Origin: a virus | DNA: 64,000 bases | Virus record (IMG/VR): IMGVR_UViG_3300005293_000009 | Span: 2,416 to 66,415 of that record | Direction: 5' to 3' (one strand) | In this document: positions 43,491 through 64,000 of the stretch, one piece after another | How the letters are laid out: every line of letters begins with the position of its first letter | Numbering within the stretch: position 1 is the first letter of the stretch | Notes under the pieces: generated by a model | What the model was told of the DNA's origin: nothing | What the model saw: only the letters and a program-made list of their open reading frames with translations | The model's database searches: none | Position numbers and translations under genes: made by a program

Positions 43491-43493
43491 GAT

Positions 43494-47299: not shown

Positions 47300-47371
47300 C
47301 CCTAGGACTTGACACCGGCTCCAGCTTGCCGTAGTGTAGGAACTACCAACCCGGTCAACGAAGGGAAAACA

Positions 47372-47958: not shown

Positions 47959-47970
47959 TAAGGTAGGAAC

Positions 47971-48348: not shown

Positions 48349-48357
48349 GGTTAAGAC

Positions 48358-48672
48358 ATGAGCACACAGGAAATTCGCCAGGCAGAACTGGCGCTCGCGG
48401 AAGCCAACCGTGCCGTCCGAATCGCGCAGCTTCAACTGGCTCGCGCTAAGAGCCGGGAGCCGGAAGAGCCCCCGGTCGATACGACCCTCCAGATCAAGGT
48501 CCAGTATCGCGAGGGCGAGAAGGCCTACACGTACGTCGCATACCGCACCCCCGAAGGCTACTGGCTCGTTACGGGTCGGAACTACGCGGGCAAGCGGCTC
48601 GGGTGGGAAGACATTCTCCACCTGGCTGACAAGAACTATTCGGGTCCCGCGCATCTGCGCGTCCTGAAGTAA
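48358..48672 (+). CDS. Hypothetical protein
   Basis: Leaderless promoter at 48323. Confidence 0.6.
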   Translation: MSTQEIRQAELALAEANRAVRIAQLQLARAKSREPEEPPVDTTLQIKVQYREGEKAYTYVAYRTPEGYWLVTGRNYAGKRLGWEDILHLADKNYSGPAHLRVLK

Positions 48673-48863
48673 CAAGCTGCCGGTTTCTCCTTCCGGCTTC
48701 CCCGGCCCCGGCTCGCGTCCTCCCTTCCGCGAGTCGGGGCCTTCTCCGTTTAGTGCCCGGACTCTTACGTGGTTATGGATGCCGAAGATAAGGTCATCGC
48801 TTATAGTTGACATGCGGTACCGGATCATGTAAGCTGGAGCTACGCCGACGAAGGGAAATCGAA

Positions 48864-49622
48864 ATGGCGAAGATGCTGACAGTGCAGGTTGAGGAAGGCC
48901 CCCTGGTCATTCCGGTTGCCGTGGATGTGTGGCAGGAGTGGATCGACGTTCACGCCGACGAGGATGAGGATGGGTTCGCGCTCGCAGAGGCGTACCTCTA
49001 CGCCGACGAGGATGGTGCGATCATCTGCCAGTGTTGCGGCGTGAACTACAACCCGGCAGTTGACAAGGACTGAAGAGTCCTGTAGGCTGTAACTACAACG
49101 AACAGGAAGGGAAATCATGTTCACTCTCAAGCTCACCGATTCCGATGAGGCACTCCAGGTCGAAGGCATCGACCTCAACGTCTGGGACTCGAACCTCTAC
49201 GGCTCTGGACCGGCGCGCGGTATCGTGGTCACCGGATACCCCATGTTCAAGGACGAGAACGGTCTCTGGGACACCGACACCGATGTCATCCTGTTCAGCG
49301 CCGACACCAACTTCAATCCGGAAGAGTGGGACGAAGACGCCTGGTACGGCCTGAGCGAGGACACCGCCCCCGGCGAGGTCCCGAATGAAGTCATGACCCT
49401 CGTCAATAACATCCTCAAGGAGCTTTCGGTATGAGCACGATCACCGTTCACCCCCGGTTCGCCACCCTGGAATGGGCGTGCAACAACGACGATGAGCACG
49501 AGGGTGCGGACGACCAGGAAATCGTCCTCCAGCCTCTCTCGGACATCGAGGATTCCGGCACCGCGATCTGCCCGCAGTGTGGCGAGGACATGGAACTCGT
49601 GAGCGTGACTGTCACGCAGTAG
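48864..49622 (+). CDS. Three small acidic proteins (48864-49073, 49117-49434, 49431-49622)
   Basis: TTGACA promoters at 48807 and 49060; GAAGGGAAATC leaders. Confidence 0.6.
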
Positions 49623-49704
49623 TCCCAAAGTAGTGCGGGTCGGGTTTGACATCCGGCCCGCATTGCTGTACGCTTGAAGTATCAGCCAAACGGAAGGGAA
49701 ACCA

Positions 49705-50166
49705 ATGGCATCTCTCACTCAGACTCAACTCGAAGCGAACGCGCTTCTCCGTCAGCACGGCCTCTACGAGAAGGGGTGGCGGTTCATCTGGGACAACGCG
49801 AAGACGCGCGGCGGTCAGTGCAAGCACCGCGAGCGCACGATCAGCATGAGCAAGTACCTCGTGCCGCTGTGGTCCGAGGACCAGGTGACGCAGACGCTCA
49901 TCCACGAGGTCGCGCACGCGGTCGTGGGTCCCGGCAACGGGCACGGCCCCGTATGGGCGCGGCAGATGCGCGCCATGGGTGTGCGGGCGGATCGTTGCCA
50001 CAGCAACGAGACCGTACAGGGCCGGTACCTTGCGATCTGCGACCACTGCGGCGTGGAGGCACACCGCGCGCACCGCATGAGCCCCGCCATGAAGCAGGGC
50101 CGACACCTTCACGCGGCGTGCCGCAAGCCGGTGCGGTGGGTTGACACCGCCACCCTGGTGCGGTAA
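49705..50166 (+). CDS. SprT-like zinc metalloprotease
   Basis: RGGQC, HEVAH, HGPVW, CDHC. Confidence 0.85.
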   Translation: MASLTQTQLEANALLRQHGLYEKGWRFIWDNAKTRGGQCKHRERTISMSKYLVPLWSEDQVTQTLIHEVAHAVVGPGNGHGPVWARQMRAMGVRADRCHSNETVQGRYLAICDHCGVEAHRAHRMSPAMKQGRHLHAACRKPVRWVDTATLVR

Positions 50167-50175
50167 GGTAGAGGC

Positions 50176-52348
50176 ATGGCAAGAGAAACGCGCCGGGTCC
50201 GGGTCGAAGACATCGATCCGGGCCTTGAGCAGGAGAACCCGCAGACCTGGCTTCGCATCCTGCCGTATGACGGGTGCGGTCAGTACAACGCGGATCGCAC
50301 CATGCGGTACATCAACTGGTGCGACCCGGACGATGACGATGAGTACCCGGTACAGCACGGACAATGGTACCCGGTCGGCACACTGATACCGCTTGACTTC
50401 TACGTCTAGACCCTGTAAGCTGTAAGTACAAGCCAACCGAAGGGAAATCGAAATGGCAACGTACACAGACGACATTGACCCGGAGGGCCGCTTCTGGGTC
50501 CACGACACCGTGACGGACGATCAGCCGGATGTCGGCATGCCGTTCGGTGAAGCGACGGTCGGGATCGTGGACGAGCACGAGGGCGGTGTGGTGCTGTACT
50601 GCCACGAGGCTTCCGCGCCGTCCATCCTCAAAATGCTCCGCCGATCAGCCGCACCGGGAAAGCTGGTGTTTCAGGGCGCAATCGTGGACACGCACCAGGA
50701 GCTTCCCGAGTCCGAGCGGTTCGTCACGGTCTGGGGCGAGACGGAGTGGTTCGAGCGCGTCAAGCTCGCGCGGTTCGAGTAAACAGCACGCCGCCTCCGG
50801 GCGGCTTTGCTGTTTAGTGCCGATCCTCTTGCGTGCGGATGCGGCTTGACATTGGCGTGCGGATGCGATACGCTTGAGGTACATCGAGGGAAGGGAACCC
50901 CATGAAGGAATACCAAGTCAGCCTGAGCCTGCCGGTCGAAGCGCTGGACGTTGCGGGCGCGGTCGCAGAGTTTCGCTGGGACGTGGCGAACGGGCCTGCC
51001 TATGTGTACGGCGTGGATACGGGCGAGGAACTGCTGAGCTACGACTCGGAGACTCGCACCGCTACCGCTGGCGCACGGATCGACAAGGGCGCGCTTGACG
51101 CGCTCGCGGATCGCGTGCTTGACCGTGCGGACGTGGACGAGACAGGCTACCTCATCGCGGGCGCGGATGAGGTTCGCGACATCCTCCGTGACGAGCTTTA
51201 CAAGCTGCTCGGCATGGTGTAGGCTAGAGCCATGGGACAGACACAGACCACCAAGCTCGCCGGTAGCCTCGCGGTCGGGGATCGCATCCTCTGGGACGGC
51301 GTGCCTGCAACGGTGACGTACCGCCAGAACTACCGGGTGGCGATGCTCCCCGGCGTGCAGACCGAACTCATGGTGCAGGGCGAGAACTTCACCGCCGCGA
51401 CCACGATCAACGCGGGCGATGCGGTCGTCATGGCAGACGAGCCGTGTGCCAAGTGCGCGAACGGGATGCATCGCGGGGTGCTCGCGTGACGCTCGGAGAT
51501 GAGGCGCAGAAGTACGCCGACCTCGCAACGGGCGCGCTCGAAGAGTCGAAGCGCCGGTCAGACCCCCGCGAAGCCGACCGAGACATCGCACGCGCGGCAG
51601 TCTACGCGCAACTGGCTCGCGCCGCGCAGAGTTGACAGCTTGCCGCCGATGCGGTAAGCTCGAAGTATCACAACGACAACCGAGAAGGGAAATCTCATGC
51701 TCAACCTCTACTCCACCCCCTCACACATCGAGGCACCGGACTTCGGCAAGTACTTCGGGCGTGACGGTCTGGGATACCAGGCCTACGCGGAAGCGGAACA
51801 GGCGTACATCGACGCGCTGAAAGCGTGGGCGAAGAAGCTCGCACCGGCATCGCCCATCGCTGGCGAGCTTGTCAGCATGCCCTACGCGGACGGTGCCGCG
51901 CTGTACATCATCGTGCAGTCGTCGGGCAAGCACGGACTCATGCCGGTGCCGGTCGGGGACGCCTGGCGCGACCCGAACTTCGAGCAGTACGCAACGGTCG
52001 CCGCACTGAAAGACATGGTGGCGCGGAACCGACGCTTCGAGAAGGCGCGGGCGCGCGTTTGACACTCTGAACGTGAGGGTGTAGTCTGGGGACATGGCAA
52101 ACGAACCGGACTACATCCTCACGATCAAGATGTCCAAGCACGGCGCGGAGGACGCGCTGGAGAAGTTCGACGGCTGGGAGGGCACGCGGCACATCGCGAG
52201 CGTCCCGGACGATGACGGTGCGCGCATCGTCACAATCTGGCATGTGCCGAACGCAACCGTAGGCGCGGGGATCATCCTCTCATGCGGAGGCTGGATCGAT
52301 GACCTCGTTTGGGGAGACTACCGTCTCATCCCGAATCGGCGTCTGTAG
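50176..52348 (+). CDS. Seven small hypothetical genes (50176-50409, 50453-50782, 50902-51222, 51232-51489, 51486-51635, 51697-52062, 52094-52348)
   Basis: Most have their own TTGAC-17-TAnnnT promoter, with either a leaderless start or a GAAGGGAA leader. Confidence 0.6.
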
Positions 52349-52565
52349 TGGCGCGCGTCATCGACCCCAGCACAGGGGAGGACGTGCGGACGTGTGCCGG
52401 ATGCGGCATCGACCATGATGCGGAAGGCTTGACGTGCTTCAACGCGCGGGACTTGTGCATCGACTGTTGTGGCGAGACTCACTGAAAGGCCCTCCGGGGC
52501 GAACGCAAGAGTATGGGCACTAAACGTGCAACGCGAAAGGGCACCCTCTCGGATGCCCTTTCGGA

Positions 52566-52730
52566 TCAGTTGGCGAACAGAACCTTGCGCTTGTCGATCC
52601 AATCGACTACGCGGGCCTCTCCAGCGGGGCGACCCTTGAGCCAAGTGCGGGATGCCGCTTCGGTTCCCCGCGCGTAATCCAGCCATTCCCCATCAACGAG
52701 AATCTGTCCGAGATATTCTTCCAGTTCCAT
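52566..52730 (-). CDS. Small hypothetical protein (MELEEYLGQ...)
   Basis: Minus-strand TTGACA(52787)-17-TAGTAT promoter; AGGGAGAG leader. Confidence 0.65.
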   Translation of the reverse strand: MELEEYLGQILVDGEWLDYARGTEAASRTWLKGRPAGEARVVDWIDKRKVLFAN

Positions 52731-52870
52731 TTTCTCTCCCTTTTGACTTGTTACTTCGATACTACAGGAAAGAATGCGGAATGTCAAACTAAGAATCTTC
52801 GGATTCTGGCTTGCAATGCCGTGCGGATGGGTGTAGGCTGGCTTTAGACAGACAGGGAAGGGAACCTAAA

Positions 52871-53488
52871 ATGTCAAACCTCCACACCCGCCACATCACG
52901 GCGGTTTTCCGCACGGCGGATGCCGACCTCATTGCGGAAGGCATCGACTGGTACGCGGACGCGCGCCGCGTTGCGGACGCTTACGCGGTCAAGTACAACG
53001 TGCCGGTGTCGGTCGCGGCTGGCGTGCTCGCGGCGCTCTCGCCCCTCAATTCGTGGGGGAACAACGTCAACCTCGCGGGGCGCATGCTCGCGTCGGGCGG
53101 GACCCTTGAGCGCGGATATCTCAAGGCGAACCTCGCAAAGGCGCGGGCGATCATGGCTACGGGATCACTTGAGCCTTTGGGCGGGCTCAAGGTGAACAAC
53201 TTCTACCTCTCGATCATTACGGGCGGCGCGGAAGGCGTGACGATTGATCGCCACGCATGGTGCATCGCGCACAACGATCGTTCGCGGACAAACTCGATCC
53301 CGAAACTCTCGCCTAAGGCGTACGCGGAGATTGCCGAGCGCTACCGCCGTGCGGCTGTAATCCTCTCGAAAGAGTACGGCATGCCGCTCTCGCCCGCCGT
53401 GGTACAGGCGGTAACGTGGGTTGTCTGGCGTCGGCGGTACTGGGGCGCGGGCGCGTTTGACACTTACAACGTGGATGATGTAAACTAG
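52871..53488 (+). CDS. DNA-glycosylase-fold-like protein (DUF7178-like), paralog 1
   Basis: GIDWY, LAALSP..SW..N, K..NFY, TIDRHA, QAVTW. Confidence 0.55.
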   Translation: MSNLHTRHITAVFRTADADLIAEGIDWYADARRVADAYAVKYNVPVSVAAGVLAALSPLNSWGNNVNLAGRMLASGGTLERGYLKANLAKARAIMATGSLEPLGGLKVNNFYLSIITGGAEGVTIDRHAWCIAHNDRSRTNSIPKLSPKAYAEIAERYRRAAVILSKEYGMPLSPAVVQAVTWVVWRRRYWGAGAFDTYNVDDVN

Positions 53489-53492
53489 ATCC

Positions 53493-53735
53493 ATGGTTGT
53501 TATCTCATTCTTCATTTTCGCCGGGGTTATAGGTTTCGTGACCTATAACCTCGGACGTGCGCGCCGCATGAATCATGGTCTCAAGCATCGCCCGGATGAC
53601 TACGCGGTGAACCTCCAGACAGGCGAGATAATCGAACGCGGTTCGGCAGCGTGGAACCTCGCATGCCGTGAGGGTAACCTCGCGACAACCCTACAGCCCC
53701 AGAATGGCGCGCGGAAAGGTGTGACGTTCGAATGA
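53493..53735 (+). CDS. Small membrane-anchored protein
   Basis: N-terminal hydrophobic helix. Confidence 0.55.
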   Translation: MVVISFFIFAGVIGFVTYNLGRARRMNHGLKHRPDDYAVNLQTGEIIERGSAAWNLACREGNLATTLQPQNGARKGVTFE

Positions 53736-53956
53736 TCACAGTGTGGACTCAAGCGGGATGCGGGCCGTGCTACGCGCTCAAGCGGGCGCTCAAGGGCATT
53801 ACGTACCTTGAGCGGGATGCCGCTAGCGCGGACGCCGGTAGGCTCGCGTACTGGCGCGCTCAAGGCTGGCAGACGCCTATCGTAGAGCATGCGGGCGGGA
53901 CGTTCGGGGGTTTCGATCCCGCGAAGGTTCGCGCGCTCGCGGACGCGCGCCGATAG
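53732..53956 (+). CDS. NrdH-like glutaredoxin
   Basis: VWTQAGCGPC, QTPIV, GGFDP. Confidence 0.8.
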   Translation: MITVWTQAGCGPCYALKRALKGITYLERDAASADAGRLAYWRAQGWQTPIVEHAGGTFGGFDPAKVRALADARR

Positions 53957-54104
53957 CGCCCCCCTACGGGGACACGCAAGAGTTTGACCACTAAACCCGC
54001 GCCGAGATTTCTCGCGCGAGTTTCGCATTTCGTGTTGCGGTTTGGCGCGGACCATGCTAAGCTAGCTTTAGCAAGACAGAGAGAAACTAAACAGGGAGAA
54101 GCAC

Positions 54105-55237
54105 ATGAACGTTATCGAGATTGTCTACACTGTCGCTCAGATCGCGGTGGGGAACCTCTACATGTGGGATGCGCCGGGAAACCTCACCTTCAAGGTTGTG
54201 GGGCTTCACCCGGCTCCGGATGCCGCTTTCGCCGGTAACAGGATCGCCCCGTTCGCGGACGTTATCTGGTCCGATGACAATGGGAAGGTCACCACGATGA
54301 ACCTCCAGAGCATCGCCTCGGGCGTGCGGATCGGGCAGATCATCCCGACAGACTGAACGCGGGGGAGCTACGGCTCCCCCGCTTTCGTTTGCCCGTTTAG
54401 TGCCCATATGCTTACGTGCTCCGGACGTGCGGCGCGTGCCGCGAGCATGCGGCAGGGGTTATCAATCTGTTACCAAAGTCATGCGGTTTCGGGTTTGCAA
54501 TGACGCCGGATGCGTGTATAGTAGTAATTACAGAGGGACACCCAGTAAGGGACTCCCCAGAACAGGAAGGTTAGTCATCATGGCTACCACCACGAAAGAT
54601 CGCCGCAACGCCGCTCGCAAGCCGGGGCTCAACGTCACGAACGACGCCGCGCTCCACGCCCTTGTGAATCGCCACAAGGAACTCAAGGCAATCGAGCGCG
54701 CCGCCGCCGAGGCTGAGCGCGAGCGCAAGGGCATCGAGTCCGAACTTCGTGCCGCCATGGGTGACGAAGAGCAGATCGTCGTGCGCGGTGTCGTCATCGC
54801 TCGCCTGTCGTCCGAGCGCAAGACGCAGAAGATCGACAGGGACACGCTCCGCAACGTCTTCCCCGAGGCCTACAGCGCGGTTGTGTCCTACGCGCCGTAT
54901 CGCTACATCGAGGTCCTGTAGCCTCACACAGAAAGCCCCCGGCCCTTGCGGTCGGGGGTTTTCTAGTGTAAGCTATGAGTAACAGACAAGGGAGGCCACA
55001 ATGGCTATCAACACGGCAGGATACCACGTCGCAGGAATCGCGCGGGCGTCACGCATGAACCCCTCGCCCCGCTATGAGGCGCGGGTGTACGTCATGCGCC
55101 ATGAGGCGGATGAGCGGCACATCGTGATCGACGCCGAGCTAGGCAAGATCGTGAAGCGGTTCCGCGACACTGAGACAGCGTGGATGGACGCCGAGCGCTG
55201 GGCGAACGACTACGCCGACAAGGTGCACGCGGAGTAG
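54105..55237 (+). CDS. Three hypothetical genes (54105-54356, 54580-54921, 55001-55237)
   Basis: Each has a promoter/RBS and a downstream hairpin. Confidence 0.6.
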
Positions 55238-55319
55238 GGCGCGGGGCTTCGGCCCCAAACCCAGCAACACGCAAGAGTAGCGCCGCTAAACGCGGGAAAA
55301 ACTGCCGGTAGAACCACTT

Positions 55320-55550
55320 AGGGGGAGAGTGCGCTAACACTCTCCCCTTGCATCCTCCGGTTCGGATTCACCACTCACGGGTTTCACCTGCCAGGGCCGT
55401 TGGACACCCCTTAGCGTTGGCCGATATTTAGTTATTGTGCATGTTAGGGTGTGGACTCTTTGGCGGTCGCACTTACCCCTACGGGGACTCGAATTCCTAG
55501 GCTCACGGACTGAACGCCCGGTCTTGCTGTGATCTTCGCCCTTTTGGTTG
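55320..55550 (-). ncRNA. Candidate ~230-nt non-coding RNA
   Basis: Minus-strand TTGACA(55585)-18-TAAGCT; no credible ORF; ends at hairpin GGGGAGAGTG..CACTCTCCCC. Confidence 0.55.
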
Positions 55551-55673
55551 TCACCAGCTTATCATGGTTGCGGAGCGTATGTCAACTTCAATCTCATCCA
55601 ATTTCAGATTTGTTTTCGCGCCAGAGTATGCTAAGCTTGCCGTAGGCAGAACAACAGAGAGAAAGGAACTGCC

Positions 55674-55883
55674 ATGAACGAGGACTTCGAGTCGGAGCTT
55701 TACGACGAGGGCTTCCTGGACGACATTGAGTCGTTCTCGGACACGTCCCTCGATGACGAGGACGAGGACTGGGACGACGAGGACGAGCCCGAGTACGATG
55801 ACGCGGACTACTGGGACGAGCGCCAGGCCGCGTACGACGACGAGTGGCCCGACCCGCTGGAACTTCCGAGCTACGGGTCGTAG
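55674..55883 (+). CDS. Extremely acidic small protein
   Basis: About half of the residues are D/E; leader AACAGAGAGAAAGGA. Confidence 0.7.
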   Translation: MNEDFESELYDEGFLDDIESFSDTSLDDEDEDWDDEDEPEYDDADYWDERQAAYDDEWPDPLELPSYGS

Positions 55884-56015
55884 CGCATAGCCCCAGGTTT
55901 TCAACGCCGGTACTACTCCGGGACCTGGGGCTTCGTGCTGCCCGGTTTAGTGGCGAGACTCTTGCGTTGCGCTGCTCGCGCCGCAAATGACAACAGCCCC
56001 TTTCGGGGCTGTGTG

Positions 56016-56237
56016 TCAGGCGAAGATTCCGCGTGCCGCTTCCCAGGCTTCCTGGGCTCGGGCTTCTTCCCATCCCCGGTTCTCGTAGTAGCGTTCTACT
56101 GCGAGTTCTGCCTGAACCTCAGCGTACGATTCTTCGGCATCCGGGAGGTATTCGCAAATCTGCGCGAAGGTGAATGTAACGCCGGGGCGAATCAGGCCGC
56201 AACGCTTAGCGCGGGCGATGATATCCATGGGGTTCAT
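56016..56237 (-). CDS. Hypothetical protein
   Basis: Minus-strand promoter; AACAGAGAGACAGGGA leader. Confidence 0.65.
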   Translation of the reverse strand: MNPMDIIARAKRCGLIRPGVTFTFAQICEYLPDAEESYAEVQAELAVERYYENRGWEEARAQEAWEAARGIFA

Positions 56238-56426
56238 TTCGTTCCCTGTCTCTCTGTTTAGTTTCTGTCTTGCTGTATATCTATACTCTACAGCACAATG
56301 CCGCGAGAGTCAAGCCGAGATTCAAGAAAAAAACTTTCCGTTCTAGGTTGACACGTTGCCAGGCATAGGGTAATGTTGTACTTACAAGGGCAGAGAGCCC
56401 CAAACCACAACAGGAAGAGAAACATC

Positions 56427-56747
56427 ATGCGTACCACCCTCAACATCAAGCACTCGTCCCCCGCCGACCTCGCCCGCGCGCTCCGCTCCGCCGCCGCGAA
56501 GATCGATGCCGGTGACATCACGCCCGGTGCGGACATCACGGTCGGAAGCGTCCGCGTGCAGGTCGCGGTCCCGCAGGAGTCGGAGAAGCGCGCGTGGGCG
56601 CGTGCCAATGGCTACCCGGTCGGTTCGCGCGGTCGCTACTCGAAGGCCCTCGAAGAGGCCTACGCCGCGCACGTCGCGTCGGAGAAGGCCGCACGCGCCG
56701 CAGAGCGCAAGGCCGCACGCGCCGCGAAGGCCCTTGTCAGCGCCTAG
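56427..56747 (+). CDS. Lsr2-like DNA-binding protein
   Basis: RAWARANGYPVGSRGR AT-hook-like motif. Confidence 0.8.
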   Translation: MRTTLNIKHSSPADLARALRSAAAKIDAGDITPGADITVGSVRVQVAVPQESEKRAWARANGYPVGSRGRYSKALEEAYAAHVASEKAARAAERKAARAAKALVSA

Positions 56748-56833
56748 CGCTCGCGGAAGGTCCCGCTAAGAATCCCCCGGCAAATCGCCGGGGGTTTCTT
56801 GCATTCCCCGCAGAACTATGGTAGGCTTACAGC

Positions 56834-57210
56834 ATGGACATTACGACACCCTGCCACGGCCTACCCCCGCAGATTGACTATGCGTTCGAGGGTCGCGCGT
56901 ACATGCAAGAGCGGGTAGTTGACGGCTTTGGGTGCCCTGCCCCCGGATGCTATCTATCCTGGGATGCCCAAGGCAAAGCGCAATAGCGCTTGACACAATG
57001 GAAAAAGCCTGATAGGCTATAGACATAGGGAGAGAGGCTCCCAGGGAAGAGGGAATCATGCTCAAGGTCATCGCCACCGGGATCGCGACCGACTACGCCT
57101 TTGAGGCGGAGTTCGCGGAGGCGGCGGCTGAGGATGCCCTCCGCGACTGGTACGCGGACGCGGCGAACTGGCCGCGCTGGGACCACGAAGAGGGGAAGTG
57201 GGACCTGTAG
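56834..57210 (+). CDS. Two 50-aa genes (56834-56986, 57058-57210), not in ORF track
   Basis: TAGGCT-6-ATG at 56834; TTGACA promoter and GGGA RBS for 57058. Confidence 0.55.
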
Positions 57211-57533
57211 GGTCCCCGCCCCTCGCGGGCCAGCACGCAAGAGTCTGCCCACTAAACAGAAGAGCCGCGACCCTCGCGGATCGCGGCGTTCCGTGCCGCC
57301 GAGCGCGTGCGCGCTCGCTGTGTGCGGCTGTCGGCGTGCGGACTGGTCCGGGAGCCTTTCCGGAGTTCCTGCATCGCGCGGTACTGGGCTGTCGGCTCAT
57401 TCTTGCGCTTGCTCATACTGAAAGCTTAGCACACTCTCGCGAGGATGCAAGACAAAAGTTTTTTTAGTTTGAGCTTGCATTCTCGCTGGAACCTGATAAG
57501 CTTGCTATCAAGAGCAAGAGAGAGGAACCCCAA

Positions 57534-58145
57534 ATGCTCAACACCATCCCCACCCCCGCGCACATCGTCGCGGCGTTCCACGCCATTGATGACCTGGCTG
57601 ACGTGTCGGCAGGCATCGCATGGTATGAGGATGCCTACGGCATGGCTGAGACGCTGGGCGTCGTCTACGGGTGCACTACGGCACAGGCGGCAGGCATCAT
57701 CGCCGCGCTGAGCCCTCAGCAGGGCTGGGCGCAGAACGTCAAGGCGGCAGAGAAATTCCTCGCCACGGGCGCGCGTGTGCACACTGAGAGCAACATGGGC
57801 AAGTGCCGTCGCATCCTCGCGGGTGAGGACATTCTGAAAGTGCTCAACGCACCTAAGACCCAGAATTTCTACCTGGGAATTGTGAGCATGGGCGTTCAGG
57901 GCGTGTGCATTGATCGGCACGCGCTTGATATCGCCCTGGGCGTCCGCCACACTGACGCCTCGCGCCCTGCCATTGGCGCGCGTCTCTACGTCACCGCCGC
58001 ACAGGCCTACAGGGACGCCGCTGAGGCCCTGAACGCTGAGGGTGTGGTAATCACCCCGGCAGAGCTTCAGAGCGTCACCTGGGCCGCACACGTCCCCGTG
58101 TGGTCGGGCGTCAAGACGGGTGAGCCGGTCGCGCTGAGCTACTGA
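57534..58145 (+). CDS. DNA-glycosylase-fold-like protein (DUF7178-like), paralog 2
   Basis: GIAWY, IAALSP..GW..N, K..NFY, CIDRHA, QSVTW. Confidence 0.55.
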   Translation: MLNTIPTPAHIVAAFHAIDDLADVSAGIAWYEDAYGMAETLGVVYGCTTAQAAGIIAALSPQQGWAQNVKAAEKFLATGARVHTESNMGKCRRILAGEDILKVLNAPKTQNFYLGIVSMGVQGVCIDRHALDIALGVRHTDASRPAIGARLYVTAAQAYRDAAEALNAEGVVITPAELQSVTWAAHVPVWSGVKTGEPVALSY

Positions 58146-58249
58146 GGCAAGGCAAGCGCCCTAGAATCTCTCAGAGAATCTAGGGCGTTTGACTTGACAG
58201 AATGGCGCGGCATGCCTTATGCTTGTACTAACAGGGAGAGAGGAACCCC

Positions 58250-59305
58250 ATGGACATCACTCACGAAGACTACTGCGACTGCGGTGACGCGCAGGCTTGC
58301 GCAGAGCGCGAGGCGGAGGCGCACAAGGGCCTCGCGCACGCGGACCCGGTGTGGGTCGCGAGCATCAGCCGCTAGCGGGAGGGGCTGGGCCTACGGGCTC
58401 AGCCCTTTTACCGGCCCCGGCACACGCAAGAGTATCGGCACTAAACTGGGCGGAAATTAGTTTCCATTTCGGTTTGACATATGCCCCCGGCATGCTATAG
58501 ACTGTAAGTAACGAGGGAGAGGAACCCCAGAATGGCCGCAACAATCGCCGCAGAGTCGGCACTCGACAACCTGATCGAAGAGGAATGGTTTGACGCTGAG
58601 GGCATCCTGATCAATCGGACGGATGACGGCGCGATCATCGTCTGGTGCGACCGGGAAGTCTACTACATCAGTAGCGAGGGTTTCATCAGCCGCCGCGACT
58701 TCAAGGGTGGACCCCAGCGGGTCATCCTGTAAAAACTAGAGTGGCCTGGGGGTTTGACTCCCAGGCCATTCTGGTGTAGACTACTAGTAACGAGGGAGAG
58801 GAACCCTAATGGACCTGAACGCACTGGATCGCTGGATCACCGGCAACGACGGCATGGATCAGTACGAGGATTGCCCCTGCGGCGATGAGGAATGCGATGG
58901 GGAGCACGAGGATGATCGTGACTTCGACAGCATGCCGGGAGGCGCGGACTACGAGGACTGGGAGCCGTTCTTCCCTGAGGACTGAGAGGGAGGGGTTCGC
59001 CCCTCCCTCTCCCGTTTAGTGCCTGTACTCTTACGTGATCCGGTTTCCGCTTTTTATGGGATTCCCGATTGTACTTTGTCCCCCGTATGGTGTATGCTGT
59101 AACTATGAACGAAGACCTGGTGCAGACTCAGCCCATCCTCATCATCCCCCCGCGTCCCGCGCTCCCCGCGCGCGTGCGGACGCGCAAGCGTGTGAACATG
59201 CCGCTGTGGGGATTCATGCTTACGCTCTTCGGCGCGCAGGCTGTGGGCGGAGTCGCCACAATCATCGGGATTGTGGCTCTGGCTTTGACATTCGGTTCAA
59301 ACTAG
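58250..59305 (+). CDS. Four small genes (58250-58375, 58532-58732, 58809-58985 acidic, 59105-59305 membrane)
   Basis: Own promoters; GGGAGAGGAACCC leaders on the first three. Confidence 0.6.
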
Positions 59306-59341
59306 AGTACGATAGTACTAACAGAGAGAAGGGAAGCCCCA

Positions 59342-59650
59342 ATGGCTACTCAGACGGCAATCATCCTCGGCCAGGACGGCACTGTCACGGAAGTGCAGTA
59401 CGCCGAAAAGGACTCGTACCCCACGATGCGCAACGCGGTCGGCGGCATGATCGAGTCCGTGTCCTACTGGACGAAGAACATCGACGCCTACGTGAACGAA
59501 GAGGGCCTGTACACGCCGGGACTGGAAGTGAACCCGTTCGGGCGCAAGGTCTTCGGTCAGCGCTGGATGGGCAACATCGTGATCCCCCGCGTGACGCCCA
59601 CGAAGCGCAAGCGCCTCGCGGCGATGGGCCTGCCCATCGCGCAGGCCTAG
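59342..59650 (+). CDS. DUF3846-like protein
   Basis: MRNAVGGMIESV, YVNEEGL, NP, GNIV. Confidence 0.7.
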   Translation: MATQTAIILGQDGTVTEVQYAEKDSYPTMRNAVGGMIESVSYWTKNIDAYVNEEGLYTPGLEVNPFGRKVFGQRWMGNIVIPRVTPTKRKRLAAMGLPIAQA

Positions 59651-59714
59651 CGCCTCGCACAAGCCGCCCAGATGCCGATTAGGTGTCTGGGCGGTTCTGT
59701 GTTAGAGTAGAGAT

Positions 59715-59845
59715 ATCGCAACGCGGGGCTTTGACTGTGAGACTCAGCGTGAAATCGGAGTAATAGCCTCCGGAGTATGCACCCGCTTGCGTTGGCCCTA
59801 GCCGGTCTCCCTTCCTCTCTGTTCATCCGGCTAGGGCCTCTCTCG
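59715..59845 (+). ncRNA. Candidate ~130-nt sRNA with an anti-leader loop
   Basis: Extended -10 TGnTAGAGT at 59700; no ORF; 12-bp stem 59794-59838 with loop CCTTCCTCTCTGTTC. Confidence 0.55.
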
Positions 59846-59884
59846 TTTTTGACACAGCGCTAGAGTAATGCTAGACTTGAATGT

Positions 59885-60262
59885 ATGGCCCTTCCCATCC
59901 TCGTCGGCGTAGGGGCGTTCGTGATCTTGGCGATCATGCTCGCCCTTCTTTGGACGAGCGCACGCTCTGACGAGAAGACAGACGCCGTAACGCAGGAAAT
60001 CATCATCAAGGCCAATACGGGGCCTGTCATCGTGCACGCGCCCGTTGACACAACGCAAGAGGAGGAACACTAAATGCGAAACTTCTGGAATGTAGTACGT
60101 GAAGTCGAGTGGTACGCCGTGCTATCTATTGTGCTACTAGTCATCGCGCTAGTGCTCGCCGTGCTTATCGCCGTAGGCGTTATCGCCCCTCTGCTATGGG
60201 TGCTCATTATCGTACTGACACAGGCTGCTGTGGTCGCCGCTGTACTGTCTCACCGGACTTGA
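59885..60262 (+). CDS. Two small membrane proteins (59885-60073, 60074-60262)
   Basis: One and two TM helices; RBS GGAGG. Confidence 0.6.
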
Positions 60263-60293
60263 CCCGCTAGCCGGTAGGGTGTATGCTTGTCCC

Positions 60294-60851
60294 ATGGGAC
60301 AAGCAACAGAGAAGCAGACCACGCTCATCAAGAGCCTGCTGGACGAGCGCGAAGTCGGATCGACTGAAGCGCTCATCCGTGGGGCTCTGGACTCGGGCTC
60401 GCTGGACATTCGTTCGGCGTCCGAGTTCATCACGAAACTCTTCGCCGCGCCTCGCAAGCCGAAGGCCGCGCCTGCGGAGTCGCCCTGGACGAAGGCGAAT
60501 GCCGCGCTCGCGAAGGTGGAAATCTCGTTCTACGCGATTCCGGCAGGATACGTCACGGCACAGCGTATCGACCTGTACGGCTCGGACTACCTGTTCGTGC
60601 GCGTGCGCAACTATCAGGGCAAGCGGTATATCTCGCGCGTGCACGGCGCACCTGGCTCGCCCCGGTACTCGCGTATCGACCCTGTGACGACTCTGGCGCT
60701 CGCGACCATCATGCAGGACCGTCACGTCGAGTTTGCGGCGCTCTGGCACGAGCACAGCGGGCGCTGTGGGCGTTGCAACGCGACCCTGACGGATCAGGTT
60801 TCGCGTGAAAAGGGCCTCGGGCCTGACTGCGCGAAGGTCTGGGGCCTGTAG
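60294..60851 (+). CDS. DUF6011-like zinc-finger protein
   Basis: GRCGRCNATLTDQVSREKGLGPDCA. Confidence 0.75.
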   Translation: MGQATEKQTTLIKSLLDEREVGSTEALIRGALDSGSLDIRSASEFITKLFAAPRKPKAAPAESPWTKANAALAKVEISFYAIPAGYVTAQRIDLYGSDYLFVRVRNYQGKRYISRVHGAPGSPRYSRIDPVTTLALATIMQDRHVEFAALWHEHSGRCGRCNATLTDQVSREKGLGPDCAKVWGL

Positions 60852-60910
60852 GGTTCGCATTCTCTCCCGTTGTATGCTAGGCTAGGTGCAACGGGAGAGA
60901 GGAACCCCAG

Positions 60911-61632
60911 ATGTGCACTTGCGAAAACCCCATCGCTACCGGCTCGGAGTGGTACAAGATTCCGGGCGGGCGCGAGCGGCTGTGGTGCTGCCACCTGTGC
61001 GGAGGCGACCTGCCTGCCGAGACGGAAGGCGGATACAGCGCCTCGCTGATCCAGTACTGAGCGAAGGGTGGGCCTGCGGGCTCACCCTTTTCTCTTGCCC
61101 GTTTAGCGCCCGTACTCTTGCGTGGCATTGCTGCGGCGCGCTGCCGAAACTCCCGCGAAACTCGCCACATTCTGGGTTGTACTTTGACGCGAGAGTGTGT
61201 TAGGATTGTATCAACAGAGAGAGGGAGACCATGGAAACCATCAAGGTCATCAACATCAGCCGGATCAAGAACTCGCGCAACGGGAACGCCCGGTTCGAAC
61301 TCGAACTTCAGGACGGGACGAAGCGCCAGACGGCGGCTGACTCGTCCTACGCCGCTGACGTGGAGAACGCCTATCACGCCTGGGACGGCGCGTCAGGGCT
61401 GACGGCATCCGTGGAGTACAACGGATGGGGAAAAATCACCCGCTTCGCGGTGCTTGCATTCCACAGCCGAGTATGATAGGCTGTAATCACAACAACAGAG
61501 AGGGGAGCAGAAATGCTCATCATGACGCAGGCACAGGCCGAGGACTTCGGTCTTGAGCACCTGGACATGACCAAGGTCACGATTCTTACCGAGGCCCAGA
61601 TGCAGGCCCACATCCGGAACCTGCTCGGCTAG
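60911..61632 (+). CDS. Three small genes (60911-61060, 61231-61476, 61513-61632)
   Basis: Purine-rich leaders and own promoters. Confidence 0.6.
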
Positions 61633-61700
61633 CCGCCACAGAAAACCCCCAAACCCCCAGCCGCCAGGTCGGGGGTTTTCTGTTGTAGTAGAATGGGTGC

Positions 61701-62135
61701 ATGAGCGAAGATAAGACACCCGAGGCTGTAAAGCCCACTAAGACTTCCGTACCCTCGCCCGATGAGGAGCCGAAGCAGGCTAGCGCAAAGCCCGCAGGAG
61801 CCAAACCCGCCACGCGCAAGATTGCGCCCGGTAGCGTGGTAAGTGGCGAGGATACGGACCCCATTAAGTACAGTAGCGCGAAGCCTAGCCCGCTCAAGCG
61901 CGTGCTAACCGTGCTGCACCTTCAGCGCCGCCTAGTGGAAGAGGGATTCACAGAGGCCGCTAGCTCGCCTGGAGGCCGCTACGACGAGCTAACGAAGCGT
62001 GCGGTATCCCAGTACCAGGAATCGCTAGGCGAGGCCGCTACGGGGCTCCTAACGCGCGAGCAGTTCGCGGGCCTGTTCGAGGGTGACCCGAATGTGTCGG
62101 TATCCCTCGACACCCACGAGGACCACGCGGTTTAG
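61701..62135 (+). CDS. Peptidoglycan-binding domain protein
   Basis: VLHLQRRL...GF...GRYDELTKRAVSQYQ...ATG (PG_binding_1 pattern). Confidence 0.7.
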   Translation: MSEDKTPEAVKPTKTSVPSPDEEPKQASAKPAGAKPATRKIAPGSVVSGEDTDPIKYSSAKPSPLKRVLTVLHLQRRLVEEGFTEAASSPGGRYDELTKRAVSQYQESLGEAATGLLTREQFAGLFEGDPNVSVSLDTHEDHAV

Positions 62136-62240
62136 TGGTCAGACTCTTGTGTGCTCTCGTCCTGGTGTCGTTCTGGGTGATCCTAAACTGGTCCCCGTCT
62201 GAGGTTGACACTCGGACTGAGGACGTGCTAGAGTAGAGTC

Positions 62241-62495
62241 ATACAGGCGGTCGCACAAGGAGCCGCCGAACCTCACCCAAGGATGGTGAGCGGTCCAGCC
62301 GAAAGTGTGATAGGCTGAATCACAGAGGGGCAAGAGCCTGAGCCACCTACCGGAGAAGTTCCGGGTCGCCCCTCTACTACAACTTCATAAACCTGCTCGG
62401 ATGAGCCATGCGGTGTTCCCATTGAGTAACAGAGCCGCCTGCCCCGGTGTCAACAACCTTCCTCTCTGTTCCCTAGTTGACACCGGGGCATTTCT
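62241..62495 (+). ncRNA. Candidate ~250-nt structured RNA with an anti-leader loop
   Basis: TTGACA(62205)-18-TAGAGT; no start codon at +1; closing stem CAGGCGG/CCGCCTG; several hairpins; 14-bp terminal stem 62441-62489 with loop CCTTCCTCTCTGTTC. Confidence 0.6.
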
Positions 62496-62534
62496 CTGTT
62501 AGGCTCAGAGTATTCAAGGGGAGAGGAACCCAAC

Positions 62535-63549
62535 ATGCTTTACTTCATCATCGGCGCATCGCTCGCATTCGGGCTGTTCATGGGGCTGAAGACTGCGCAC
62601 ACGGCCACTGTAGAGGGCGAGAGCGTAGCAGACGCGCGCCTCCACGGCGTGCTGGGCGGCGTGCTGTGCGCTGTGTTCGCGGCGTGGGCGCTGTTCCTGG
62701 CGTGGGGCGTGGGCATGGCCTACTGGCACTTTATCGTCGCCTGAGCGCGACACGCTAGCGGTCTAGGTTTGCAACCTAGGCCGCTTTGCTGTAGGCTGTA
62801 GGTATGGATGCAGAGGTACGCGAGACACTGAGCCGCCACGGTATGACCGACGCGGATATCGAAACGCTCGCGGCGTTTGAGGCGCAGACGCGCAAGCGCA
62901 AGCCGCGCGCAAAGATTGTTGCTGAGCCGCTTGACTTTGGCGACTGGGCATAGTAGACTGGAACTATTCAAGGGGAGAGGAACCCGAAATGTTTCACGTT
63001 ATCTACACCAAGCACACGCGGTTCGGATACGTCACGCGCGTCAAGACGATCCGTACCGGTATCGAGGGCGTTCGTAAGTTCGTCACGACCCGCTGTGCGC
63101 CTGAGACTCACGTCATCGTGAAGTACGCGCGTACCGGGCAGGTTGTTTCGGTCTGGGCTTGACACTCGCGCAAAGAGTAGAGTAGAATAGAGTCATGACA
63201 GAGACACAGCCCACAGAGTTCGAGGACATGGTTGAGCCCGAACTGTGCCCCCACTGCGACCGCTACTTCGACGCAGACATTCGCGCGAACTGGGTTTCGA
63301 CCCCGTTCCACCTGATCTGCGGCCAGTGCGGCACCAACATCTGGCCCGAGAACGAAGTCAAGTGGCAGGAGCGGTAAAAAGTTCGGGGGAGAATGCTTGA
63401 CATTCTCCCCCGTACTATGTTAGACTGTAGGTACAGAGGGAGAGAGGAACCCCGAAATGACCGCTTACGAAGTACCTGCACTGGCACCCCGGCCCTGCTC
63501 GCATGAGGGCATCGTTCACCGCCCGTTGCTCAACGCGGAGCAGGACTGA
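62535..63549 (+). CDS. Five small genes (62535-62744 membrane, 62804-62953, 62989-63162, 63195-63377 Zn-ribbon, 63457-63549)
   Basis: Each has its own promoter. Confidence 0.6.
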
Positions 63550-63653
63550 GGGAGAGGGACCCGAGAGGGTCCCTTTCTTGCGGGCAGCATCACGCAAGAG
63601 TTCAGGCACTAAACCAGGGCAAAAAATGAGGGCCGGTTTCCCGGCCCTCTCGG

Positions 63654-63776
63654 CTAGTCGTCCAGGTCGAGGTCCCACTCGCCCGAGTCGATGTAGTCCT
63701 GGTCGAGTTCCGCCTGGTCGATAGCGGCCTCGCCCTGGTAGAGCGCGTTGCTCCGGATGCTTGCGTAGAGTGCCAT
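63654..63776 (-). CDS. 40-aa acidic protein (MALYASIRS...)
   Basis: AACAGAGAGGGAGG leader and minus-strand promoter. Confidence 0.55.
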   Translation of the reverse strand: MALYASIRSNALYQGEAAIDQAELDQDYIDSGEWDLDLDD

Positions 63777-64000
63777 GGGGCCTCCCTCTCTGTTGATACA
63801 AGTCTAACATAGTCTGTCGCAGAATGCAAACCCGAAACCCTGGCCGTTTTTAGGTAGGGATTCCAGTCTATCGGGTTTTCGCCCAGGATGCAAGAGGGAA
63901 ATTCAAGAATCTTTTTTCGGGTTTTGGTATTGCAACCCTGCCAACCTATGCTAAGCTGGTACTACCAACCAGGGAGAGGAACCCTAAAATGTCGAAGATC

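Follow-up and report, generated by a model that had tools for sequence, protein, structure and literature searches.

A sharply bounded, asymmetric 24-bp word with the properties of a protein site is repeated along the right-hand part of the window, the 64,000-nucleotide stretch of viral DNA analyzed here. Sequence comparison places the array in the part of the window corresponding to the direct terminal repeat (DTR), 15.5-20 kb long, of a clade of Microbacterium siphophages with genomes of about 190 kb. The word is most likely a landing site for a protein rather than a site for the shuffling of genes. We tentatively read the copies as docking sites of a putative phage protein, which would act as stoperator-like transcription barriers or insulators; this is a substantial possibility that falls short of a probability.

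The 24-bp word and its copies

The first-pass annotation had described thirteen copies of CACGYAAGAGT-N6-RCTAAAC, six on the plus and seven on the minus strand. All thirteen are present where they were reported and with the same core strings; eight are exact and five carry one or two mismatches (table 1). The eight exact matches in the window compare with 0.00 expected from 100 shuffles. When up to three mismatches are allowed, there are 15 matches against 0.11 expected by chance, and the largest shuffle gave 1. The two additional matches are weak plus-strand copies at 46276 and 60052. Since both recur at corresponding places in relatives, they are probably genuine sites. The earlier statement that the first 48 kb contain no copy is thus nearly right, the weak copy at 46276 being the exception. 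A scan of the entire 66,415-base record for the word gave no additional copy.

A logo built from 103 distinct sites gives the consensus CACGYAAGAGT, then M-N-N-G-S, then CRCTAAAC. Positions 1-11 and 17-24 are strongly conserved, with about 0.8 to 2.3 bits each, position 17 being C. Positions 12 (A or C), 15 (mostly G) and 16 (G or C) are weakly constrained, and positions 13-14 are free. Only about 3 bp of the supposedly variable 6-bp core are free in this logo. Neither flank carries any information, and conservation breaks off abruptly at either end of the word. The dyad between the arms amounts to 3 bp only, and the GCAT variant lacks even that. Two pairs of copies do share a core, but this does not exceed chance (0.49 expected among 78 pairs, P(≥2) = 0.09).

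Table 1. Copies of the word and the repeat-matching stretch (window positions)
Feature	Coordinates	Strand	Setting in the window	Relatives
DTR-matching stretch	43439..64000		runs to window end; left end inferred at ~43439	
Weak site	46276..46299	+	2 mismatches; GGTAAAC right arm; in ORF 46168-46416	A3Wally counterpart differs by one base, at 2321 and 181542
Site	48748..48771	-	exact; GTTTAG-first on +, 3' of hairpins of gene 48358-48672	
Site	50812..50835	-	1 mismatch; past hairpin of gene 50453-50782; TTGACA hexamer 11 nt downstream	
Site	52502..52525	+	1 mismatch; convergent junction; minus-strand unit 52526-52800 ends there	orientation unchanged at pre-DUF7178 junction of G001, A3Wally, Cece, Big4
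Site	53973..53996	+	exact; past NrdH-like gene 53732-53956	junction: + also in L038, L039; - in L033, L062, A3Wally
Site, YAAGCAT variant class	54395..54418	-	2 mismatches	variant also in G001 (3 copies), Cece (2 copies), L039
Site	55268..55291	+	exact; ORF-less minus-strand unit ~55292-55600 ends there	
Site	55945..55968	-	1 mismatch; convergent junction of genes 55674-55883 (+) and 56016-56237 (-)	
Site	57234..57257	+	exact; conserved minus-strand gene 57252-57416 ends there	junction: - in G001, A3Wally, Big4; + in Cece
Site	58423..58446	+	exact; separates two + units	
Site	59014..59037	-	exact; past hairpin of gene 58809-58985	
Weak site	60052..60075	+	3 mismatches; spans stop of 59885-60073, ribosome site and start of 60074-60262	at matching junction in G001, A3Wally, Cece, Big4; orientation constant
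Site	61101..61124	-	exact; past hairpin of gene 60911-61060	
Site	62130..62153	-	1 mismatch; GTTTAG contains TAG stop of gene 61701-62135 (PG_binding_1 domain)	stop-codon overlap also in A3Wally, Big4
Site	63591..63614	+	exact; convergent junction; minus-strand gene 63654-63776 ends there	

Terminal repeats of related phages

Aligned by MAFFT, the window matches the genome starts of A3Wally, Cece, Big4 and Pumpernickel from about position 43439 onward, and the first DTR gene in all four isolates (nt 57-92) is a homologue of the window ORF 43494-44405. This first repeat gene resembles the small terminase subunit (E = 3e-4). The DTR measures exactly 15,503 bp in A3Wally and 19,963 bp in Pumpernickel. 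The window comes from a large soil phage, and by this comparison its array stretch is probably, in a physical sense, a terminal repeat. In its plan, the A3Wally genome combines tail genes of siphovirus type with a large tRNA block and with long direct repeats that hold many small genes.

A scan of relatives, as had been proposed, placed all copies of A3Wally, Cece and Big4 in the two identical end repeats (13, 12 and 11 copies per repeat, respectively), and outside the terminal repeats these three genomes contain none. A 171-kb viral contig (G001) carries 13 copies, all of them at 4.5-18.2 kb, and the word also occurs in 34 soil metagenome fragments. The ATPase common to the motif-bearing phages is only 44-57% identical between them. 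Retention of the motif across such diverged phages indicates that it is old and under selection. Its spelling differs among lineages: A3Wally has AAT, Big4 has a final G, and in Pumpernickel the word is respelled as ACGCArrAGAA-N5/6-yCTAAT. Such lineage-specific spellings would be the expected look of co-evolution with a reader protein. An exact-pattern scan of the genomes of 185,579 species gave just four single matches, in unrelated organisms, and the word is therefore no host repeat.

Geometry relative to terminators

The sites had been described as lying just past a terminator hairpin, and statistically this is true. A stem of at least six pairs ends within 30 nt of 107 of the 146 sites in the window and its relatives, compared with 214 of 620 random positions (73% versus 35%). 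The median hairpin-to-site gap is 7 nt for sites in the GTTTAG-first orientation and 15 nt for those facing the other way, and the distance from the site to the next promoter, read by eye, varies from about 10 to 75 nt. Where a hairpin is found on one side only, the site follows it GTTTAG-first in 57 of 83 cases (69%). The GTTTAG-first counts in the isolates are 9/13, 8/12 and 9/11, and at tandem junctions the orientation bias is just 61% (74/121).

Minus-strand units had also been said to end beside a site in all four cases. The adjacency holds, but there are five such units, with 3' ends at about 52526, 55292, 55969, 57258 and 63620; after four of the five the site is GTTTAG-first for the unit's own strand. 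The overlap of the copy at 62130 with a stop codon is likewise real. Copies embedded in a gene or operon (the 46276 and 60052 type) face the opposite way in all genomes in which they are present, and the orientation at one junction can differ between relatives. Host-type promoters and hairpins are also found outside the repeat part of the window, where no site accompanies them, and many unit boundaries inside the repeat part likewise have none. The site is thus no accessory of terminators in general.

Possible functions of the sites

The idea of an operator or roadblock acting on first-injected DNA is supported in outline: the word resembles a protein site, is found only in the repeats of the isolates and hugs the terminators. 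The process could be pictured as follows. The repeat, packed with short promoter-gene-terminator units, would be transcribed by the host RNA polymerase. A sequence-specific DNA-binding protein, probably phage-encoded, would dock on the 24-bp word directly past the terminator of a unit, and the bound protein would then halt a polymerase that overruns the terminator. Alternatively, the units of the repeat might be shut off once the protein has built up. The effect may depend on the face of the protein met by the polymerase, and the opposite orientation of the embedded copies is what a one-faced barrier would require. That the repeat might be the first part to enter the cell is an analogy with T5 and BF23, the repeat of which is described as being injected first and as the portion exposed to host restriction (PMC10644984).

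The closest known counterpart is provided by the stoperators of cluster A mycobacteriophages. As described for L5 gp71 and the TipsytheTRex repressor, the repressors bind as monomers to more than 20 asymmetric, non-palindromic copies of one word, located at promoters and in short intergenic spaces of an actinobacteriophage genome; they halt elongation in an orientation-dependent manner, and the way the sites point tends to follow the direction of transcription (PMC9283540). They prove that a monomer carrying two DNA-binding domains can read a word of this kind. Stoperators, however, are 13-mers distributed genome-wide in temperate phages, where they serve the immunity repressor (PMC9283540), whereas the present word is 24 bp long, bipartite and limited to the terminal repeats of phages without an integrase or an annotated repressor. 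In contrast to stoperators, the sites also lie directly past intrinsic terminators, and their orientation bias of about 60-70% can vary between relatives at one junction. This bias (61% and 69%) is far from the "striking" correlation seen for stoperators and counts against the barrier reading. Given the footprint of RNA polymerase, a protein docked 0-16 nt past the hairpin would be struck by the leading edge of the polymerase short of the release point, and a benefit for termination is not obvious. The phages of this group look lytic, and the A3Wally annotation lists no repressor. A Pfam search for a DNA binder among 43 small ORFs and 10 larger proteins of the region found only an Lsr2-type domain, a type known for binding the minor groove of AT-rich DNA and not for reading a 24-bp word. 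One-sided stopping of a polymerase or fork by a monomer bound to an asymmetric site of about 18-28 bp, present in both orientations, is known from Tus-Ter of E. coli, mTERF and TTF-I/Reb1, which belong to cells or organelles and have unrelated sites and proteins; at the phage sites, binding and polarity are putative.

The main rival, in our view a rather unlikely one, is a repeat-specific function at the DNA level that is unrelated to transcription. The sites might mark or protect the first-entering end, pace a T5-like stepwise entry, or serve replication, annealing or duplication of the repeat, and their position past terminators would merely reflect free space in a dense region. The strict confinement to the terminal repeats of three isolates is the strongest single fact in its favor, joined by the similar promoter-hairpin units without a site outside the repeat, the terminase-like first repeat gene and a genome plan like that of T5 and BF23. 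The tight, orientation-dependent spacing to the hairpin, combined with the loose spacing to the promoter, is however unexpected for the filling of free space; the known packaging and injection signals are local and do not extend over 13-15 kb; and stepwise entry in Microbacterium phages would be an analogy with T5. No dispersed 24-bp word is known from T5 or BF23. Their pre-early repeat is similar in being a long DTR rich in small genes, in a large siphovirus that also carries a tRNA block, and the account consulted mentions no such word (PMC10644984). A role of the sites as targets for a sequence-specific nicking enzyme, for example a phage HNH endonuclease, is improbable; it would produce single-strand interruptions at fixed places, as in T5 and BF23. 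Specific nicks in one strand are described for T5-like phages that have long terminal repeats (PMC10644984). The A3Wally annotation includes four HNH endonucleases and endonuclease VII, and most sites share one orientation, but about one third have the other. Homing-type endonucleases typically recognize long asymmetric words that are loose in the middle. T5 nicks are not limited to the repeat. Also very improbable is that the word works at the RNA level, as an element of 3' ends or of read-through (a hairpin and then GUUUAGUG...), or as a promoter for a modified polymerase firing antisense into finished units. About two thirds of the copies lie past the terminator in one orientation, so that read-through RNA would carry the same strand; the copies in the other orientation, however, are equally conserved, and some, as at the pre-DUF7178 junction, keep this orientation in all lineages. 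Internal pairing of the word does not exceed 3 bp, the window has no match to any Rfam family, the flanks in the 103-site logo lack a conserved -35 or -10 partner, and the A3Wally annotation contains no phage RNA polymerase or sigma factor. A likeness to sigma-54 promoters (TGGC-N7-TTGC) is limited to copies with C at position 16 (39/103), and Actinobacteria are not known to have sigma-54.

The first-pass annotation had also considered that cassettes are shuffled or inverted by a tyrosine recombinase; that the sites are crossover sites of such a system, or of an Xer-like one, now appears very improbable. The arm-spacer-arm layout of about 24-28 bp and the occurrence in both orientations do resemble dif/pdif and other tyrosine-recombinase core sites, but the arms have no inverted-repeat structure in the 103-site logo, the cores are mostly unlike one another, and positions 15-17 are conserved. 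No tyrosine recombinase (PF00589) was found in six genomes and no serine recombinase (PF00239) in five, and an integrase is also absent from the full A3Wally annotation. Mosaicism in the region is high: when sites with full flanks are paired between contigs, 46 pairs have both flanks in common, 50 only the CACG side and 61 only the AAAC side. Two minus-strand cassettes of the window are missing from G001 right next to a conserved site, and loose ends of contigs from the probable source run fall at the site edges 53997 and 59037 (2 among the 24 listed of 151). Polymorphisms in the arms are nevertheless independent of the flanks; pairs sharing only the left flank show a left-arm identity of 0.79, against a background of 0.74, and a right-arm identity of 0.96. 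Nor do breakpoints gather at the sites. Gene adjacency is kept in 21% of comparisons across site junctions versus 33% and 29% elsewhere, but in 21% versus 14% and 19% when only the five long genomes are used, and thus site junctions do not lose adjacency more than site-less ones. A given neighbor gene can lie on one face of the site in one relative and on the other face in another (26 cross hits), and the arrangement was therefore not produced by polarity-keeping site-specific exchange. In the PeSL cassettes of T4-type phages, too, small non-essential genes are divided into units by strong promoters of host type and by terminator stem-loops, and modules are extensively shuffled between relatives; there the promoter with its stem-loop is itself the repeated element, and the shuffling results from recombination among its copies (Arbiol et al. 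2010, PMC2839356). Here, in contrast, the word is separate from promoter and hairpin, and has unconserved flanks and no breakpoint enrichment. None of the 14 contig joints listed ends at a site. When read by eye, at least 2 of these 14 joints connect repeated promoter-leader sequences.

A bounded word confined to the long terminal repeat

The pattern CACGYAAGAGT-N6-RCTAAAC matches the window exactly at eight positions, none being expected from 100 shuffles, and at 15 positions when up to three mismatches are allowed, against 0.11 expected by shuffling. All 13 copies reported in the first-pass annotation, six on the plus strand and seven on the minus strand, are recovered by this search at their positions and strands. 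Two further weak copies are found at 46276, inside an ORF, and at 60052, across a stop codon, a ribosome site and a start codon. A wider scan covering the full 66,415-base record gives no additional copy, and the reversed-pattern control gives zero matches.

The logo of the site is derived from all copies with up to three mismatches in the window, in a related 171-kb viral contig (G001) and in 34 related metagenome loci, which together provide 110 sites with full flanks, 103 of them distinct. Sites whose distance to a contig end was shorter than the flank were left out here, as they were in the folding-energy and hairpin-side counts described below. In the 103 distinct sites, conservation is strong over positions 1-11 and 17-24; A or C stands at position 12, mostly G at 15 and G or C at 16, which leaves only positions 13 and 14 free, and the 40 bases on each side of the site carry about zero bits. 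Because the two blocks are conserved and the flanks are uninformative, the site is an asymmetric 24-mer with sharp edges. Its centre is indeed variable, as had been noted, but the freedom extends over about 3 bp rather than the 6 bp initially assigned to it. The sole dyad visible in the logo is AGT/ACT (3 bp), and this dyad is lost in a recurrent YAAGCAT variant class, which occurs at 54395 in the window, three times in G001, twice in the isolated phage Cece and in one of the collected loci, L039. The two pairs of sites sharing a core are present, but they do not exceed chance (0.49 pairs expected, P = 0.09).

A 12-kb megablast query had no match in the phage collection. A tblastn search with the 581-residue ATPase (38880-40625) reached a group of ~190-kb Microbacterium phages, namely A3Wally (57% identity), Cece (51%), Big4 and Zooman (43-44%) and Pumpernickel (40%). 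The CheckV completeness of the viral record, 34%, is compatible with a genome of about 190 kb. The Pfam families found in the region are DUF7178 (twice), SprT-like, DUF6011 and DUF3846, all of which are common in actinobacteriophages.

A3Wally begins and ends with the same 15,503 bases. In A3Wally, Cece and Big4 the word is present in both end copies of the terminal repeat (Table), with zero matches elsewhere in the three genomes. In alignment, ~43439 of the window corresponds to the left end of the repeat in the isolates, and the first gene of the repeat in all four isolates, Pumpernickel included, is a homologue of the window ORF 43494-44405. As the sites, the left end and the first gene all match the repeats of the isolates, the stretch originally described as the early region corresponds to a long direct terminal repeat. 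We infer from this correspondence that the stretch is physically repeated in the window's own phage as well.

At up to three mismatches, the site has no match in Pumpernickel, DSL-LC01 or GodonK. In the Pumpernickel repeat (19,963 bp, 1-19963) a related left arm, ACGCA-R-R-AG, occurs 12 times, nine of these on the minus strand. By eye, a right arm CTAAT/CTAAA at the same spacing is clear after seven of these left arms and weaker after four. The variant, with about 11 occurrences, reads ACGCA-R-R-AGAA, then 5-6 bases, then yCTAAT. The word seems to have been respelled in the Pumpernickel lineage.

Uncultured relatives carry the word as well. A scan of viral contigs returned 17 stretches, 16 with a single match, which by estimate is roughly the chance level, and one with three. 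The latter is G001, which is syntenic with the window in reverse and has its 12-13 sites all at 4.5-18.2 kb; a scan of viral contigs for the DUF7178 protein found no close relative other than G001. A metagenome scan returned 42 stretches, nine of them with at least two exact matches. Blastn relates 34 of the 42, and the other eight (L035, L037, L048, L050, L057, L058, L061 and L064), with no blastn hit to the window or G001, were excluded from all counts. The conservation of the word thus extends from the isolates to G001 and soil relatives. Scanning 185,579 prokaryote species, each represented by one genome, for the exact pattern produced four single hits in unrelated taxa, which rules out, for the exact pattern, a repeated element or a regulator box of the host. 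In the open-access literature no description of the word or of the repeats of the large Microbacterium phages was found.

Features of the terminal repeat in the isolated phages and of its counterpart in the window
Feature	Genome	Position	Remarks
Sites in the terminal repeat	A3Wally	1177-14246 and 180398-193467	13 sites per repeat copy; offset 179,221; repeat 15,503 bp
Sites in the terminal repeat	Cece	both ends	12 sites per repeat copy; offset 168,434; repeat 18,079 bp implied
Sites in the terminal repeat	Big4	both ends	11 sites per repeat copy; offset 174,694; repeat 17,669 bp implied
Small-terminase-like first gene	window	43494-44405	kept in all six genomes
CHAP endolysin-like gene	window	44961-45716	kept in all six genomes
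ORF holding a site	window	46168-46416	kept in all six genomes
DUF7178 gene	window		kept in all six genomes
ORF	window	54580-54921	kept in all six genomes
Lsr2-type DNA-binding domain protein	window	56427-56747	kept in all six genomes
PG_binding_1 gene	window	61701-62135	kept in all six genomes
GACACGCCCGGGAT word	A3Wally	near 6204, 12227 and 13709	
GACACGCCCGGGAT word	Big4	near 7974	
GACACGCCCGGGAT word	L062 (collected locus)	near 640	
GTGGATAA pair	A3Wally	~13745-13775	
GTGGATAA pair	Big4	~15945-15975	

Position and orientation of the sites at terminators

The usual layout in the isolates, as judged by eye, is a stop codon, a GC-rich hairpin, a short T-rich run, the site and, 10-75 nt further on, a TTGACA-type promoter. 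The earlier impression that the site lies just past a terminator hairpin is borne out statistically. A stem of at least six pairs ends within 30 nt, on either side, at 107 of 146 sites, compared with 214 of 620 random positions in the same sequences. A hairpin with a folding energy of -18 kcal/mol or lower is found within 45 nt at 95 of 148 sites, compared with 11% of control windows.

When a hairpin is present on one side only, the site follows it in the GTTTAG-first orientation in 57 of 83 cases. The median gap between hairpin and site is 7 nt for GTTTAG-first sites and 15 nt in the opposite orientation. In the former, the T-run itself seems to take in the T-rich GTTTAG; in the latter, a full T-run precedes the site. 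The gaps of 7 and 15 nt therefore place the site as close behind the terminator as possible in both orientations.

At tandem junctions, 74 of 121 sites are co-directional; this count, like the adjacency counts given below, is rough, as the home-made codon-score gene caller misses some small genes. The co-directional sites number 9 of 13 in A3Wally, 8 of 12 in Cece and 9 of 11 in Big4. The association of minus-strand units with sites, described initially for four units, holds for all five in the window, each of which ends beside a site, and four of these five sites are co-directional with their unit. The embedded copies, 46276 and 60052, are oriented opposite to their genes in every genome having them. 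Site orientation varies among relatives at two junctions. Some boundaries in the window have no site, several terminators running straight into the next promoter, and the non-repeat part of the window contains host-type promoters and hairpins with the site absent.

Recombination and other known systems

The arrangement of the sites is confirmed and extended by these comparisons; the reading of it as a tyrosine-recombinase system that shuffles or inverts cassettes is not supported. No enzyme, no linkage of site arms to flanks and no excess loss of adjacency at the sites was found, the arm-flank, adjacency and contig-joint tests all being crude. The tempting pdif-like explanation is hereby corrected.

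The tyrosine recombinase family PF00589 is found in none of six phage genomes or records (G000 and G001, both incomplete, A3Wally, Cece, Big4 and Pumpernickel), and its positive control was detected in 14 of 14 genomes. The serine recombinase family PF00239 is found in none of five genomes, with its positive control detected. The full annotation of A3Wally contains no integrase, recombinase, transposase, phage RNA polymerase, sigma factor or repressor; it includes a WhiB-type factor, RecA-like, RuvC-like and endonuclease VII genes, and four HNH endonucleases.

The repeat region is very mosaic. Of the between-contig site pairs with full flanks, 157 have flank homology on one side or both: 46 share both sides, 50 only the CACG side and 61 only the AAAC side. 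Neighbouring gene families remain adjacent in 266 of 1280 comparisons at site junctions, 412 of 1264 at site-less gaps and 294 of 1022 at tight junctions; the corresponding counts for the five long genomes are 50 of 241, 30 of 212 and 40 of 211. The mosaicism is not special to the sites. The identity of the left and right arms is 0.79 and 0.96 in pairs with only the left flank in common, and 0.78 and 0.87 in pairs with only the right flank in common, the background being 0.74 and 0.76 and the values for orthologous pairs 0.92 and 0.92. The arm-flank linkage expected from a crossover inside the site is not found in this comparison. Furthermore, in 26 cross hits a neighbour that one relative has on one face of the site is on the other face in another relative, and the site after the NrdH-like gene is on the plus strand in the window, L038 and L039, and on the minus strand in L033, L062 and A3Wally. 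A polarity-keeping exchange cannot yield such opposite-face neighbours; inheritance of the site together with a swapped-in neighbouring cassette can.

No tendency of rearrangement breakpoints to map to the sites is seen, adjacency loss not being in excess there and none of the 14 listed joints in the contigs of four soil runs ending within a site. By our reading, at least two of these 14 (58527 to 58786; 62502 to 63966), in contigs of the probable source run, link repeated promoter-leader sequences, and look like homologous exchange between repeated regulatory sequences of the PeSL kind. Near-identical promoter-leader sequences precede several small genes at 58500-58800 and 62480-63980 of the window. 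At least two loose contig ends in the probable source run, among the 24 listed of 151, are exactly at site edges, 53997 and 59037. Counter-evidence, in favour of some link between sites and rearrangement, comes from two minus-strand cassettes of the window that adjoin a conserved site and are missing in G001.

Several other known elements were compared with the site. A core site of the dif/pdif type is rejected, the arms not being ~11-bp inverted repeats (only 3 bp are symmetric) and no tyrosine recombinase being found in the six genomes. The same absence, together with the lack of a palindrome, applies to integron attC and REP-BIME elements, and longer mobile elements (MITE, REP) are excluded because the flanks are unconserved. 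The word has neither the hairpin nor the promoter hexamers of a T4-type PeSL regulatory cassette, and the adjoining hairpins and promoters vary by copy. The window has zero gathering-score matches to Rfam families and zero tRNA or tmRNA genes. Read as a promoter, the site lacks a conserved partner element within 40 nt on either side, and its hexamers do not match TANNNT. A sigma-54-like TGGC-N7-TTGC is limited to the 39 of 103 sites with C at position 16, and the AAC...CGT order of ECF-type promoters is missing on both strands, by eye. An activator or UP-type site is rejected because the distance to TTGACA, also by eye, ranges from ~10 to 75 nt.

Possible function of the site and candidate binding proteins

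The site consists of two conserved blocks about 14 bp apart. Its asymmetric, bounded, two-block form, its retention across genomes with ~40-60% identical proteins, its lineage-specific spellings and its not being a word of bacterial genomes all point to a putative target of a sequence-specific DNA-binding protein, which would co-evolve with it.

It is possible, and we tentatively propose, that the site is a one-faced transcription barrier, at which a phage protein would dock in a stoperator-like manner. PMC9283540 describes the cluster A mycobacteriophage repressor as a two-domain monomer that acts on more than 20 asymmetric sites and halts elongation in one orientation only. The likeness lies in the many asymmetric copies, 15 in the window (13 of them intergenic) and 11-13 in relatives. 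A barrier working mainly from one face of the site would fit the coupling to terminator edges, the orientation bias and the reversed embedded copies. The differences from the stoperator system are large, however, which is why the proposal is a tentative one. The site is longer and bipartite, it occurs only in the terminal repeat, and its orientation rule is weaker, co-directionality holding at 74 of 121 tandem junctions and for 57 of 83 sites with a single hairpin. Stoperators belong to an immunity repressor with an HTH and a stoperator domain and are spread genome-wide in temperate phages, whereas the phages considered here are apparently lytic, A3Wally annotating no integrase or repressor. 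The operator or roadblock reading, offered in the first-pass annotation as the alternative to recombination, is supported in outline.

The main rival to a transcription barrier, a DNA-level role specific to the repeat, is somewhat doubtful. It would account for the most striking fact about the word, its confinement to the repeat, and similar transcription units outside the repeat are without it. The genome plan of the Microbacterium phages is also reminiscent of T5 and BF23, in which, according to PMC10644984, the terminal repeat enters first and it is this part that is open to host restriction. An unlikely further reading is a "boundary code" in the terminal repeat of these T5-like actinophages, in which a dedicated phage protein with a 24-bp specificity would occupy about a dozen one-faced sites behind terminators and control the first-entering segment as a unit. 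Such a protein could insulate, and then silence, the genes of the repeat, or could label the repeat DNA as self during the attack on the host genome and the entry of the remaining genome.

The word is a conserved cis-element of a cultivable clade of ~190-kb Microbacterium phages (A3Wally, Cece and Big4, with a variant in Pumpernickel) and of soil relatives, and with isolates at hand bench tests are possible immediately. An identified binder would offer a new 24-bp DNA-binding specificity, and would provide a way into how large actinobacterial phages with terminal repeats time or insulate the genes of the repeat. If the barrier reading is true, actinobacterial genetics could furthermore gain small, orthogonal insulator parts from the sites.

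The Table lists, as mere candidates for the protein that reads the site, the repeat genes that all six genomes retain. The database searches identified no such reader. Pfam searches of 43 small ORFs (46168-63776) gave only Lsr2_DNA-bd (1e-8), a Ribosomal_L12 C-terminal domain (1.8e-7) and weak zinc-ribbon-type hits. Of four conserved proteins searched against PDB sequences, 43494-44405 matched a small terminase weakly and 56427-56747 matched Lsr2, and the other two had no useful match. The protein atlas returned only unnamed viral clusters for 57252-57416 (-) and 54580-54921.

In the 303-residue product of the first gene, residues 179-281 are weakly similar to the small terminase subunit 7joq_I (E = 3e-4). 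The gene is conserved at nt 57-92 of the terminal repeat in all four isolates; as it is small-terminase-like, the repeat would open with a packaging gene, and the CHAP endolysin-like gene comes next. The 106-residue product of 56427-56747 has an Lsr2-type DNA-binding domain (PF23359, 1e-8, assigned to this ORF through the PDB search, as the Pfam result names no ORF; PDB Lsr2 chains, E ~0.02) and is 40-70% identical in the repeats of the six genomes compared. The best-conserved product of the region is a very basic protein of 54 residues encoded at 57252-57416 (-). The best segment in tblastn, against A3Wally, reaches 91% identity, and the protein recurs in G001, Big4 and Pumpernickel, which brings it to four of five relatives; the A3Wally record has no annotated minus-strand gene in the terminal repeat. 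The L7/L12 C-terminal domain (PF00542, 1.8e-7) belongs to one of the 43 small ORFs, by eye probably 47971-48348.

Two promoter-driven units, at ~55292-55600 (-) and ~62240-62470 (+), have neither a convincing ORF nor an Rfam match. The former ends at a 10-bp hairpin next to the site at 55268; in Cece a similar hairpin, identical in its loop letters, comes after a site (at 9780). Among the A3Wally genes is one for a Ro-like RNA-binding protein, and the two units might specify Y-RNA-like partners of such a protein. In relatives, another conserved word, GACACGCCCGGGAT, stands between some of the sites and the promoter that follows, and none is present in the window at up to two mismatches. Near the inner end of the terminal repeat, GTGGATAA words are paired 5 nt apart, the second being a full TGTGGATAA; we take these words to read like DnaA boxes. 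A single exact TGTGGATAA occurs in the window at 38318, outside the repeat region.
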